From: a virus
Lineage: Duplodnaviria; Heunggongvirae; Uroviricota; Caudoviricetes
Length of the DNA stretch: 5,799 nucleotides
Strand: one strand, 5' to 3'
Virus record (IMG/VR): IMGVR_UViG_2698536681_000012
The position numbers and the translations under genes were made by a program. The notes under the pieces are model-generated. The model was not told where the DNA came from, searched no databases, and saw only the letters and a list, made by a program, of their open reading frames with translations. Positions 2,169 to 5,799 of this stretch are shown here, piece after piece; position 1 is the first letter of the stretch; each line of letters starts with the position of its first letter.

Positions 2169-2622
2169 ATGCCAAACTGGTGCTCGAATCGTATGTATTT
2201 TTCTGGTGAACCGGCACAGATCGCTGAGATTAAACGACTGGCCAGCGGTGCAGTTACACCGCTTTATCGCCGCGCCACAAATGAAGGTATTCAGCTGTTT
2301 CTGGCCGGAAGTGCCGGACTTCTGCAGATCACTGAAAATATCCGCTCTGAGCAGTGCCCCGGAGTGACGGCTGCCGGACGTGGTGCTGTATCACCGGAAA
2401 ATATCGCGTTCACCCGCTGGCTGACACACCTGCAGAACGGTGTACTGCTGGATGAGCAAAACTGCCTGATGCTGCATGAACTCTGGCTGCAGAGCGGTAC
2501 TGGACAGCGTCGCTGGGAAGAGTTACCGGATGATGTCAGGGAAACTATCACTGTGCATTTCACCGCAAAAAGAGGTGACTGGTGTGGCTTCTGGAGTAAC
2601 GAGGATGTATCGGTGTGGTGGA
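2169..2622 (+). CDS. Hypothetical protein, paralogue A (N-terminal 151 codons visible; continues into N-run)
   Basis: ATG at 2169 with a strong RBS GAGAGGAG (2154-2161, 7-nt spacing). Open frame with enterobacterial-like codon usage, translating MPNWCSNRMYFSGEPAQIAEIKRLASGAVTPLYRRATNEGIQLFLAGSAGLLQITENIRSEQCPG... I do not recognise the family. Confidence 0.8.
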
Positions 2623-3055
2623 NNNNNNNNNNNNNNNNNNNNNNNNNNNNNNNNNNNNNNNNNNNNNNNNNNNNNNNNNNNNNNNNNNNNNNNNNNNNNN
2701 NNNNNNNNNNNNNNNNNNNNNNNNNNNNNNNNNNNNNNNNNNNNNNNNNNNNNNNNNNNNNNNNNNNNNNNNNNNNNNNNNNNNNNNNNNNNNNNNNNNN
2801 NNNNNNNNNNNNNNNNNNNNNNNNNNNNNNNNNNNNNNNNNNNNNNNNNNNNNNNNNNNNNNNNNNNNNNNNNNNNNNNNNNNNNNNNNNNNNNNNNNNN
2901 NNNNNNNNNNNNNNNNNNNNNNNNNNNNNNNNNNNNNNNNNNNNNNNNNNNNNNNNNNNNNNNNNNNNNNNNNNNNNNNNNNNNNNNNNNNNNNNNNNNN
3001 NNNNNNNNNNNNNNNNNNNNNNNNNNNNNNNNNNNNNNNNNNNNNNNNNNNNNNN

Positions 3056-3178
3056 TGGCCAGTGGTGCCGTCACACCGTTTTATCGCCGCGCCACAAATG
3101 AAGGTATTCAGCTGTTTCTGGCCGGAAGTGCCGGACTTCTGCAGACCACTGAAGATGTGTGGTTTGAACCGTGCCCCG
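3056..3178 (+). CDS. Hypothetical protein, paralogue B (internal fragment homologous to paralogue A residues ~25-64); both ends in N-runs
   Basis: 3080-3145 is 66 nt identical to 2263-2328, with about 85% identity over about 110 nt. In-frame translation ASGAVTPFYRRATNEGIQLFLAGSAGLLQTTEDVWFEPCP parallels paralogue A. The copy offset of 817 nt places a start near 2986, inside the N-run. Confidence 0.65.
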
Positions 3179-3475
3179 NNNNNNNNNNNNNNNNNNNNNN
3201 NNNNNNNNNNNNNNNNNNNNNNNNNNNNNNNNNNNNNNNNNNNNNNNNNNNNNNNNNNNNNNNNNNNNNNNNNNNNNNNNNNNNNNNNNNNNNNNNNNNN
3301 NNNNNNNNNNNNNNNNNNNNNNNNNNNNNNNNNNNNNNNNNNNNNNNNNNNNNNNNNNNNNNNNNNNNNNNNNNNNNNNNNNNNNNNNNNNNNNNNNNNN
3401 NNNNNNNNNNNNNNNNNNNNNNNNNNNNNNNNNNNNNNNNNNNNNNNNNNNNNNNNNNNNNNNNNNNNNNNNNNN

Positions 3476-3742
3476 TTCATTCAGGTTGATTTCGACACGC
3501 CGTGGTGTCAGCCGGAAAGCGACGTTATTGCAGAATTAAGCCGCCGTTTCAGCTGCACGCTGGAGCACTGGTATGCCGAACAGGGCTGTGATTTCTGTGG
3601 CTGGCAGTTGTATGAGCGCGGAGAGCTCGTTGATGTGCTGTGGGGGGAACTGGAATGGTCTTCCCCGACAGATGATGATGAGCTGCCGGAAGTCACCGGA
3701 CCTGCGTGGATAATCGACAATGTGGCGCATTATGGCGGATGA
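3476..3742 (+). CDS. C-terminal 88 codons of a hypothetical Cys-containing protein with an acidic tail (possibly the C-terminus of paralogue B, but in a different frame from 3056-3178)
   Basis: Open frame to TGA at 3740-3742, translating FIQVDFDTPWCQPESDVIAELSRRFSCTLEHWYAEQGCDFCGWQLYERGELVDVLWGELEWSSPTDDDELPEVTGPAWIIDNVAHYGG. Codon usage is good and the next gene starts 3 nt downstream. Confidence 0.7.
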   Translation, partial: FIQVDFDTPWCQPESDVIAELSRRFSCTLEHWYAEQGCDFCGWQLYERGELVDVLWGELEWSSPTDDDELPEVTGPAWIIDNVAHYGG

Positions 3743-3745
3743 AGT

Positions 3746-4954
3746 ATGACGGAGACGGGCGGGCAACCGCNNNNNNNNNNNNNNNNNNNNNNNNNNNNNN
3801 NNNNNNNNNNNNNNNNNNNNNNNNNNNNNNNNNNNNNNNNNNNNNNNNNNNNNNNNNNNNNNNNNNNNNNNNNNNNNNNNNNNNNNNNNNNNNNNNNNNN
3901 NNNNNNNNNNNNNNNNNNNNNNNNNNNNNNNNNNNNNNNNNNNNNNNNNNNNNNNNNNNNNNNNNNNNNNNNNNNNNNNNNNNNNNNNNNNNNNNNNNNN
4001 NNNNNNNNNNNNNNNNNNNNNNNNNNNNNNNNNNNNNNNNNNNNNNNNNNNNNNNNNNNNNNNNNNNNNNNNNGTCGGCCTGACCCGTTACCGGACGCGG
4101 TGAACAGCCCACAGGCAGCGGGGAACGGGCACCACAGGGGTGCCCTCCCGNNNNNNNNNNNNNNNNNNNNNNNNNNNNNNNNNNNNNNNNNNNNNNNNNN
4201 NNNNNNNNNNNNNNNNNNNNNNNNNNNNNNNNNNNNNNNNNNNNNNNNNNNNNNNNNNNNNNNNNNNNNNNNNNNNNNNNNNNNNNNNNNNNNNNNNNNN
4301 NNNNNNNNNNNNNNNNNNNNNNNNNNNNNNNNNNNNNNNNNNNNNNNNNNNNNNNNNNNNNNNNNNNNNNNNNNNNNNNNNNNNNNNNNNNNNNNNNNNN
4401 NNNNNNNNNNNNNNNNNNNNNNNNNNNNNNNNNNNNNNNNNNNNNNNNNNNNNNNNNNNNNNNNNNNNNNNNNNNNNNNNNNNNNNNNNNNNNNNNNNNN
4501 NNNNNNNNNNNNNNNNNNNTGGAAAAATGCGGGATTCAGCGTTGTTGGTCACCTGGTCTTCACCAAAAACTACACATCGAAGGCCGCATATGTGGGCTAT
4601 CGCCACGAATGCGCCTACATCCTGGCAAAAGGCCGTCCACGTCTGCCACAAAACCCGCTGCCGGACGTGCTGGGCTGGAAATATTCGGGCAATCGCCATC
4701 ACCCGACGGAAAAGCCCGTTACCAGCCTGCAACCGCTGATTGAGAACTTCACACACCCGAACGCAATTGTGCTGGACCCGTTTGCAGGCAGCGGCTCAAC
4801 CTGCGTCGCCGCCCTCCAGTCCGGACGCCGGTATATCGGTATCGAGCTGCTTGAGCAGTATCACCGTGCCGGGCAGCAACGCCTTGCCGCCGTGCAACGG
4901 GCCATGCAGCAGGGGGCCGCGAATGATGACTGGTTTATGCCGGAGGCTGCGTAA
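3746..4954 (+). CDS. DNA methyltransferase, beta-class N6-adenine/N4-cytosine type (PF01555-like); C-terminal catalytic region visible, N-terminal extent uncertain
   Basis: The visible C-terminal 144 codons (4520-4951) contain HPTEKP followed about 20 residues later by DPFAGSGST (the FxGxG AdoMet-binding motif), then RRYIGIE, an arrangement typical of beta-class amino-MTases such as CcrM. ATG at 3746 gives a 402-codon frame if the N-runs are length-faithful; the visible island 4074-4150 is open only in this frame. Alternatively the MTase starts inside the N-run 4151-4519 and 3746 begins a separate short gene. Confidence 0.8.
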   Translation: MTETGGQPXXXXXXXXXXXXXXXXXXXXXXXXXXXXXXXXXXXXXXXXXXXXXXXXXXXXXXXXXXXXXXXXXXXXXXXXXXXXXXXXXXXXXXXXXXXXXXXXXXXXXXRPDPLPDAVNSPQAAGNGHHRGALPXXXXXXXXXXXXXXXXXXXXXXXXXXXXXXXXXXXXXXXXXXXXXXXXXXXXXXXXXXXXXXXXXXXXXXXXXXXXXXXXXXXXXXXXXXXXXXXXXXXXXXXXXXXXXXXXXXXXXXXXXXXWKNAGFSVVGHLVFTKNYTSKAAYVGYRHECAYILAKGRPRLPQNPLPDVLGWKYSGNRHHPTEKPVTSLQPLIENFTHPNAIVLDPFAGSGSTCVAALQSGRRYIGIELLEQYHRAGQQRLAAVQRAMQQGAANDDWFMPEAA

Positions 4955-5176
4955 ATGAACTATGCAGGACACGAAAAACTGCGCGCCGAAGTGGCGGAGG
5001 TGGCCAATGCCATGTGCGACCTGCGTACAACCATGAATGAGATGGAGCAGCGGTACAGCTTTAATGCCGACACCCTGCCGGAACGTCTGGTGCGTCAGAC
5101 GCTGTTTCGCGCAAACCGCCTCCTGATGGAGGCATATACCGAAATTCTGGAACTGGAAGCGTGCTTCAAAGATTGA
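4955..5176 (+). CDS. Small hypothetical protein (73 aa), translationally coupled to the methyltransferase
   Basis: ATG at 4955 directly follows the MTase TAA (TAAATG at 4952-4957), with GGAGG 9 nt upstream. Fully visible ORF MNYAGHEKLRAEVAEVANAMCDLRTTMNEMEQRYSFNADTLPERLVRQTLFRANRLLMEAYTEILELEACFKD; stop TGA at 5174-5176. Predicted mostly helical. No recognised family. Confidence 0.7.
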   Translation: MNYAGHEKLRAEVAEVANAMCDLRTTMNEMEQRYSFNADTLPERLVRQTLFRANRLLMEAYTEILELEACFKD

Positions 5177-5189
5177 GAAGGAGACGAGA

Positions 5190-5242
5190 ATGTACGGAAC
5201 ATGCGAAACGCTATGCCGGGAGCTGGCAGTAAAGTATCCGGG
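5190..5242 (+). CDS. Start of a hypothetical gene (first 17 codons visible; continues into N-run)
   Basis: ATG at 5190 with RBS AAGGAG 8 nt upstream, 13 nt after the previous stop. Translates MYGTCETLCRELAVKYPG. Confidence 0.55.
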
Positions 5243-5487
5243 NNNNNNNNNNNNNNNNNNNNNNNNNNNNNNNNNNNNNNNNNNNNNNNNNNNNNNNNNN
5301 NNNNNNNNNNNNNNNNNNNNNNNNNNNNNNNNNNNNNNNNNNNNNNNNNNNNNNNNNNNNNNNNNNNNNNNNNNNNNNNNNNNNNNNNNNNNNNNNNNNN
5401 NNNNNNNNNNNNNNNNNNNNNNNNNNNNNNNNNNNNNNNNNNNNNNNNNNNNNNNNNNNNNNNNNNNNNNNNNNNNNNNNNNNNNNN

Positions 5488-5799
5488 GGCGTGGCGATGG
5501 AGATCATCAATAACGTGAGAGAAAACCGCCAGGTGACCGTCCCTGCTGAACTGCTGGCGTCCCTGATTCAGACCGCTGAACAGGCATTGTGGAANAAGAC
5601 GAAATCAGGGCAGTTCTTGATGCGGTGCACGATGCGGTACGCAGTGTCAGTTGCCGGGTGGCAGAAGATGCGCGGCGTATCAGGGCGGCGCTGACCACAA
5701 CCGGTCAGACGTTGCTGACCCGCCAGACGCGCCGCTTTCGCCTGGTTGTGAAGGAAAGCGATCACCCCTGCTGGCTCGATGAAGACGACGAAAACCTGC
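5488..5799 (+). CDS. Hypothetical protein, partial; apparent frame break at the ambiguous base 5595; runs off the window end
   Basis: 5488-5594 reads as coding in one frame (..[34 protein letters not shown]). From 5595 the protein-like frame is shifted by one ([68 protein letters not shown], open to the window end), while the original frame turns Arg/Gly/Trp-rich and stops at 5694. May be the same gene as 5190 or a separate one. Confidence 0.5.

Follow-up and report, generated by a model that had tools for sequence, protein, structure and literature searches.

The locus considered here lies in a stretch of 5,799 nucleotides (nt) from the IMG/VR virus record IMGVR_UViG_2698536681_000012, the whole of which is called the window below. 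Its visible segments align, with order and orientation kept, to plasmid leading regions of the IncI1/IncI-gamma and IncF types from Escherichia, Salmonella, Klebsiella and Shigella, and they include part of a DNA methyltransferase (MTase) gene, which is our main subject. Since 48% of the window is given as N, 3030 bases can be read. On the plus strand, positions 4520 to 4954 hold the C-terminal 144 codons and the TAA stop (4952-4954) of this gene, and the sequence HPTEKP, followed by motif I, DPFAGSGST, is read directly within them. A first-pass annotation of the window had proposed a beta-class amino-MTase on the basis of these motifs, with a Pfam classification as a check, and this assignment is borne out: the visible fragment (4520-4951) matched PF01555 (N6_N4_Mtase) with 92.4 bits (E=5.1e-26), well over the gathering cutoff of 26.7, and both motif I and HPTEKP are intact in the visible part. 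The full-length reference protein reached 136.4 bits (E=1.8e-39) against the same family and 497.5 bits against the NCBIfam subfamily NF010253 (cutoff 244).

The remainder of the gene is hidden by the N-run at 4151-4519. According to the mapping of its flanks (window position 4150 corresponds to 12380 and position 4520 to 12658 in the reference locus L002, where the MTase starts at 12409), this run conceals, on the plus strand, ~28 nt at the end of the 5' leader and the coding sequence up to codon 83, with the start and motif IV, DPPY; it is 369 nt long in the window, against 277 nt in the references. The MTase measures 684 nt, or 227 amino acids (aa), in all eight reference plasmids, so that the open reading frame (ORF) of 402 aa previously drawn from 3746 to 4954 is an artefact, in which the Ns of 3771-4073 and 4151-4519 were translated as X. 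The gene junctions derived from that frame have to be redrawn as well. The 3-nt junction attributed to the MTase lies instead between the upstream DUF1281 gene (stop at 3740-3742) and a small annotated ORF, and the MTase starts ~75 nt past this small ORF in the references; the downstream junction, described as overlapping, is one where the MTase and the following gene, Hp9, abut (TAA|ATG at 4952-4957).

Over its visible part the MTase is identical (144/144 aa) to WP_000086147.1, and 135 of 144 residues (93.8%) are shared with M.EcoGIX (WP_000086153.1), encoded at 54782-55465 of pESBL-EA11 from E. coli O104:H4. Full-length WP_000086147.1 and M.EcoGIX agree at 215 of 227 positions (94.7%, 12 substitutions). 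DPPY (residues 27-30) and FAGSG (residue 171) are present in all eight homologs compared, and WP_000086147.1, identical over the visible part, carries DPPY, whereas motif IV itself is masked in the window. In an alignment of eight plasmids the variable columns of the MTase are distributed over the first, second and third codon positions as 24/16/94, which indicates clear purifying selection. The nearest solved structures are those of CcrM (6pbd, E=8e-16), M.RsrI (1eg2, E=1.5e-13) and 'DpnA' (5hek/5hfj, E ~1e-11), all matched mainly over the part of the C-terminus that binds S-adenosylmethionine (SAM).

The surroundings of the gene point in the same direction. In the reference plasmids, the minus strand carries impB (Y-family polymerase), impA/umuD and impC (DinI-like), and the plus strand carries, in this order, DUF1281, the small annotated ORF, a gene annotated as 'DNA methylase', a 73-aa ORF, DUF1380, a 258-aa ORF, KlcA/ArdB, ssb, a parB-like gene, psiB, psiA and ardA. 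This is the synteny of the M.EcoGIX locus on pESBL-EA11 (impB-impA-impC / DUF1281 / MTase / Hp9 / DUF1380 / YchA-like / KlcA, followed by ssb, psiB, psiA and ardA), where the MTase is co-oriented with klcA, ssb, psiB, psiA and ardA. On pESBL-EA11 the methylase is found at 54.8 kb, and nikA and the origin of transfer (oriT) follow past ardA at ~70.4 kb. The distance of ~15 kb to oriT, together with the orientation, places the methylase inside the DNA that is transferred first, with the transferred strand (the minus strand of the window) as its template. The gene of the window thus resembles M.EcoGIX in length (227 aa), in the succession DPPY...HPTEKP...DPFAGSGST, in its neighbours on both sides and in its strand relative to oriT, and it differs by the 12 substitutions of the reference allele and by the masking of its N-terminal third. 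Relatives of M.EcoGIX include YfbB of R64, YfeA of F and the related M.BceJIII. We therefore hold, with high confidence, the gene to be orthologous to M.EcoGIX (R64 YfbB / F YfeA family), an orphan, single-strand-specific N6-adenine MTase of IncI1/IncF leading regions.

The MTase is without a cognate restriction enzyme partner. Among its neighbours and two long antisense ORFs, scans of Pfam, PADLOC and NCBIfam returned no nuclease, restriction endonuclease or defence family, and the earlier observation of a multi-gene block, read in one direction, in which nothing beside the MTase resembles an endonuclease, holds. The first-pass annotation had left room for a restriction gene concealed in an N-run. 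This can be discarded: the flanks are colinear with the references, the stretches hidden there (157-278 nt) are fully accounted for, and at most ~92 nt are left unexplained. The N-runs around the MTase measure 303, 369 and 245 nt, and the corresponding stretches of the references, all annotated, measure 250, 277 and 157 nt. Moreover, at least 5000 plasmids of PLSDB have this gene order around the MTase. In pESBL, knockout of M.EcoGIX affected neither plasmid stability nor host growth, and transposon insertions were neutral (PMC4288162), from which it follows that this enzyme is not the protective half of an active restriction-modification (R-M) pair.

These observations bear directly on the idea that the MTase belongs, as its modification component, to a classical Type II R-M system whose endonuclease would lie in the masked DNA or among the unannotated small neighbours. 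The best PADLOC models for the MTase protein do carry the label 'Type II methyltransferase', profile searches often miss restriction enzymes because of their divergence, and no family match was obtained for Hp9, the YchA-like gene or the small ORF, all three of them neighbours. However, the adjoining N-runs do not exceed 369 nt, the gene order that is kept in the many colinear plasmids is free of nucleases, and both knockout and insertions were neutral for maintenance and growth. M.EcoGIX itself recognises the degenerate motif SAY and methylates partially and on one strand, without vegetative expression (PMC7736820). The Type II reading is thus already largely refuted, and we regard it as extremely improbable.

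What the orphan ortholog does is known from published work. M.EcoGIX deposits N6-methyladenine (m6A) promiscuously at SAY, on one strand only and at ~40% of sites, on replicons that depend on DNA polymerase I (PolI), and is silent during normal growth (PMC7736820); one-strand SAY methylation was shown for both M.EcoGIX and M.BceJIII, and no chromosomal methylation was detected for M.EcoGIX (PMC7736820). Its knockout reduced transfer of pESBL up to 1000-fold into recipients expressing EcoGIII or EcoRI (PMC4288162). Inversion of oriT mimics the knockout and abolishes protection (PMC7736820), which implies that synthesis of the enzyme occurs in the recipient, directed by the entering strand. RNA-seq of early transconjugants revealed that six leading-region operons are strongly and transiently induced, among them that of M.EcoGIX, whose strong induction was seen 15 min after transfer, each of the six being under a hairpin single-strand promoter whose start was mapped by 5' rapid amplification of cDNA ends (5'-RACE) (PMC12672017). 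Orphan MTases rank among the most enriched families of leading regions (PMC11541004). The suggestion of the first-pass annotation, an orphan MTase on a conjugative element that pre-modifies DNA against host restriction, can accordingly be kept in part: the anti-restriction role agrees with the orthology to M.EcoGIX, the synteny and the published knockout, but the term pre-modification does not fit, since methylation takes place in the recipient and not in the donor.

By analogy with M.EcoGIX, the allele of the window might be expected to share SAY-directed m6A formation, strand specificity, zygotic induction and protection against restriction. The transferred strand (window minus, the template of the MTase) would enter the recipient starting at oriT, ~15 kb away, and a large hairpin formed on it would serve as a promoter which the host RNA polymerase recognises only in its single-stranded form. 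The MTase would then be synthesised transiently in the new host and might methylate SAY adenines on the entering strand while the complement is being made, an activity reportedly linked to DNA polymerase I. A hemimethylated duplex would result, which may be partly shielded from many different restriction enzymes. As soon as the plasmid becomes double-stranded, the promoter would be lost and the gene would fall silent again.

A housekeeping or regulatory orphan comparable to Dam or CcrM, acting on duplex plasmid or host DNA and controlling replication or expression, has also to be considered. CcrM is among the closest solved structures to the MTase, and in the presence of M.EcoGIX plasmids that depend on PolI are affected in copy number and replication of M13 is suppressed (PMC7736820). 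Such a role is, however, very improbable given the silence of the ortholog in vegetative growth, the lack of detected chromosomal methylation (PMC7736820), its induction only transiently after transfer (PMC12672017), a genetic phenotype of restriction evasion (PMC4288162), and the presence of ArdA, KlcA/ArdB, PsiB and SSB in the neighbourhood. CcrM and M.RsrI share with the MTase the family PF01555 and the order of motif IV before motif I, but they are larger, have defined duplex targets (GANTC and GAATTC, respectively), serve housekeeping or R-M, are not expressed from single-stranded DNA (ssDNA) promoters and show only distant similarity outside the C-terminal SAM-binding region.

DpnA, from the DpnII system of Streptococcus pneumoniae, is a beta-class m6A MTase which is active on ssDNA and shields incoming DNA in transformation. 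Like the anti-restriction MTase proposed here, it is a small (~230-270 aa) beta-class m6A enzyme with a minimal target-recognition region, and it acts on incoming ssDNA so that the resynthesised duplex escapes restriction; in contrast, DpnA is encoded by the host within an R-M locus, is specific for GATC and belongs to transformation and not to conjugation. The sequence match to the DpnA chains in the PDB (5hek/5hfj) is limited to the C-terminal ~65 residues. The orphan and promiscuous MTases of phages (for example M.EcoGII and Dam-like enzymes) are likewise mobile, lack a cognate endonuclease, have a broad specificity, act against restriction and are silent except at entry or during development (PMC7736820; PMC11541004), but they modify duplex DNA on both strands and belong to other sequence subfamilies.

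A candidate for the promoter lies immediately upstream of the gene. Positions 4074 to 4150, on the minus strand, form the visible 5' (template) arm, proximal to the MTase, of a large hairpin, hereafter hairpin (b), which in the DNA fold spans ~220 nt (L002 12128-12350); the arm includes CCCACAGGCAGC at 4109-4120. The minus strand of L002 12090-12410 folds with -96.9 kcal/mol (z=-6.25), and the structure covers the 3' two-thirds of the small ORF together with the leader of the MTase. The visible arm is 100% identical in the reference loci L001, L002 and L004, and also in pESBL. The promoter 5' of M.EcoGIX, with its start mapped in pESBL, is described in PMC12672017 as a distinct 'class 3' ssDNA promoter, and hairpin (b) is likely to correspond to it. 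A small GC hairpin, GGGCACC...GGTGCCC, occupies 4121-4149, immediately 5' of the ribosome-binding site of the MTase. Its 11-nt unit GGTGCCCTCCC is triplicated in L006 and deleted in L005 in an alignment of loci L001-L009, and this element of the leader is thus variable in length.

The small ORF that shares this stretch is annotated as 'hypothetical protein' by the Prokaryotic Genome Annotation Pipeline (PGAP) on the plus strand at 3746-4103 (L002 12022-12333; 101-103 codons in the references), of which 3746-3770 and 4074-4103 are visible. It starts with ATG at 3746 and ends with TGA at 4101-4103, in a frame that differs from that of the 3746-4954 reading. Several features speak against a protein. 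In the eight-plasmid alignment its variable columns are spread over the codon positions without bias (14/16/16), an indel of 1 nt changes the frame between plasmids, the 5' end has been lost in a Klebsiella plasmid that retains hairpin (b), and no match was obtained in Pfam, PADLOC or NCBIfam; taken together, these findings indicate that the small ORF is probably non-coding. In an earlier annotation of pESBL the same stretch was left intergenic (PMC4288162). Probably, the small ORF represents a mis-annotated structured ssDNA-promoter region and not a protein gene.

The identification with M.EcoGIX has to be weighed against the state of the window. The N-runs are located at 251-812, 1090-1328, 1466-1788, 2623-3055, 3179-3475, 3771-4073, 4151-4519, 5243-5487 and 5595, and within the first of them a lone 'ttt' stands at 475-477. 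Their lengths deviate from the distances in reference plasmids by -499 to +817 nt, no reference agreeing, and because of this neither reading frames nor distances can be transferred across the Ns. A stretch of ~62 nt occurs on both sides of an N-run (1403-1465 is repeated as 1789-1851), and the best-matching plasmid lineage varies by segment: 813-1089 and 1329-1465 are 100% identical to pESBL, and 3056-3178 is 100% identical to pFORC44_1. The single n at 5595 takes the place of ~500 nt in every plasmid compared. A natural deletion variant was considered for the junction 5594/5596 and rejected, since the best-matching plasmids listed have its two sides separated by 804-811 nt, which indicates a collapsed gap. 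At the other end, positions 1-31 break off from the impB/umuC match, which starts at base 32, and have only a weak similarity of 26 nt elsewhere in L002; they are a probable further contig junction or a rearrangement. The window has the appearance of a mosaic in which short contigs, plausibly derived from several co-resident related plasmids, were wrongly scaffolded.

Several points consequently count against the assignment or restrain it. The 83 N-terminal codons with the catalytic DPPY are hidden, and the N-run covering them exceeds the reference distance by 92 nt, so that the copy could be disrupted. The exact allele is separated from M.EcoGIX by the substitutions given above, and its function is carried over from the ortholog. 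A mosaic window makes the linkage between its parts uncertain, and a search by eye of hairpin (b) revealed no convincing sigma-70 -35/-10 pair. It could even be argued that the copy is a pseudogene or an assembly chimera of co-resident plasmids with no functional MTase as drawn. The deviating N-runs, the duplicated stretches, the segments assigned to different lineages and the collapsed gap at 5595 are in line with this, as is the occurrence of up to 7 copies of the MTase gene per E. coli genome, which tangles short-read assemblies. Against this, the 435 nt that can be read are unbroken and match a widespread intact allele at 100% identity, and the visible segments are arranged and oriented as in the references. 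We consider a non-functional or chimeric copy unlikely, and the intactness of the masked, mis-scaffolded gene is the main residual uncertainty in its identification as an M.EcoGIX ortholog.

The plus-strand block to which the MTase belongs begins with the DUF1281 / DUF1281_C gene at 2169-3742 (Hp8 of pESBL, 300 aa in the references; PF06924, E=3.4e-29; PF18406, E=7e-15). Its N-terminal segment occurs twice in the window, as different alleles at 2237-2359 and 3056-3178, with too little space for two full copies. DUF1281 is widely kept beside the MTase in IncI and IncF plasmids, is interrupted by IS21 in pUM146 and is absent from one Klebsiella IncF plasmid; our literature search found no work on its function. 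An imperfect hairpin of 162 nt, hairpin (a), was found by DNA folding on the minus strand at 1977-2138, ending 30 nt 5' of the DUF1281 ATG (2169), with z=-5.0 for the minus and -6.5 for the plus strand. By BLAST and alignment both of its arms are homologous to the hairpins that precede klcA/ardB and ardA, the 'class 2' ssDNA promoters of PMC12672017; hairpin (a) itself is not among the six promoters named in the accessible part of that paper. Its 3' arm contains TTGCAT-N15-TAACGT, with a consensus match of 3/6 per hexamer, and TTGCAT-N15-TAAGAT is found upstream of klcA. A comparison of hairpin (a) with the klcA and ardA hairpins by RNAalifold gave a positive (unfavourable) covariation term, with the 5' arm misplaced in the alignment, and column-matched individual folds gave 6-10 shared pairs and no compensatory ones, a comparison blurred by register shifts. 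An Rfam scan of the window returned no family.

Directly downstream of the MTase, with its ATG abutting the stop codon, lies Hp9 (plus strand, 4955-5176; 73 aa, identical to WP_001104881.1 of L002). It is kept in all eight plasmids, and its variable columns (12/7/33 by codon position) constitute a coding signature; no match was found in Pfam, PADLOC or NCBIfam. That hairpin (a) is a further promoter of the class 2 type, serving DUF1281, and that at the same time Hp9 is an anti-defence or MTase-accessory protein, is a joint reading which we put forward tentatively and hold to be rather doubtful. If it were true, DUF1281, driven by the promoter in hairpin (a), would count as an establishment gene with zygotic induction.

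The remaining genes were placed largely by mapping to the references. Hp9 is followed on the plus strand by a gene of the DUF1380 family (5190-5594, visible at 5190-5242 and 5488-5594; Hp10 of pESBL; PF07128, E=2.5e-52 on the reference protein) and by an internal part of the YchA-like gene of 258 aa (5596-5799; Hp11 of pESBL), whose protein had no match in Pfam, PADLOC or NCBIfam. The opposite end of the window, 1-1387 on the minus strand, corresponds to the divergent SOS mutagenesis operon impC/impA/impB at the far end of the leading region. Visible parts are impC (DinI-like; 1329-1387, with the complement of the start codon at 1385-1387; PF06183 on the reference), impA/umuD (813-1089; PF00717, E=2.6e-19) and the umuC-type Y-family polymerase gene impB (32-250). 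Upstream of impCAB, a LexA (SOS) box palindrome, CTGTATGTTTATACAG, is located at 1412-1427 with the canonical CTG-N10-CAG spacing, and in a second copy of the box, CTGTATATATATATACAG, at 1797-1814 a (TA) expansion widens the spacing to N12.

The MTase is already known and very common, and its presence in the window adds nothing new about the enzyme. At least 5000 PLSDB plasmids match, and about 80% of the 5000 best-scoring records are predicted to be conjugative. Of 5426 complete E. coli genomes, 3341 (62%) carry homologous DNA with an identity of at least ~80%, and 4536 of 4591 occurrences in E. coli are on plasmids. On the technical side, the window teaches that ORFs read across N-runs are unreliable, and that what PGAP calls a 'hypothetical protein' 5' of the MTase is probably no gene but a structured promoter region. 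For the biology of the family, the role established between 2015 and 2020 applies: these MTases help the resistance plasmids of Enterobacteriaceae to establish in restriction-proficient hosts.

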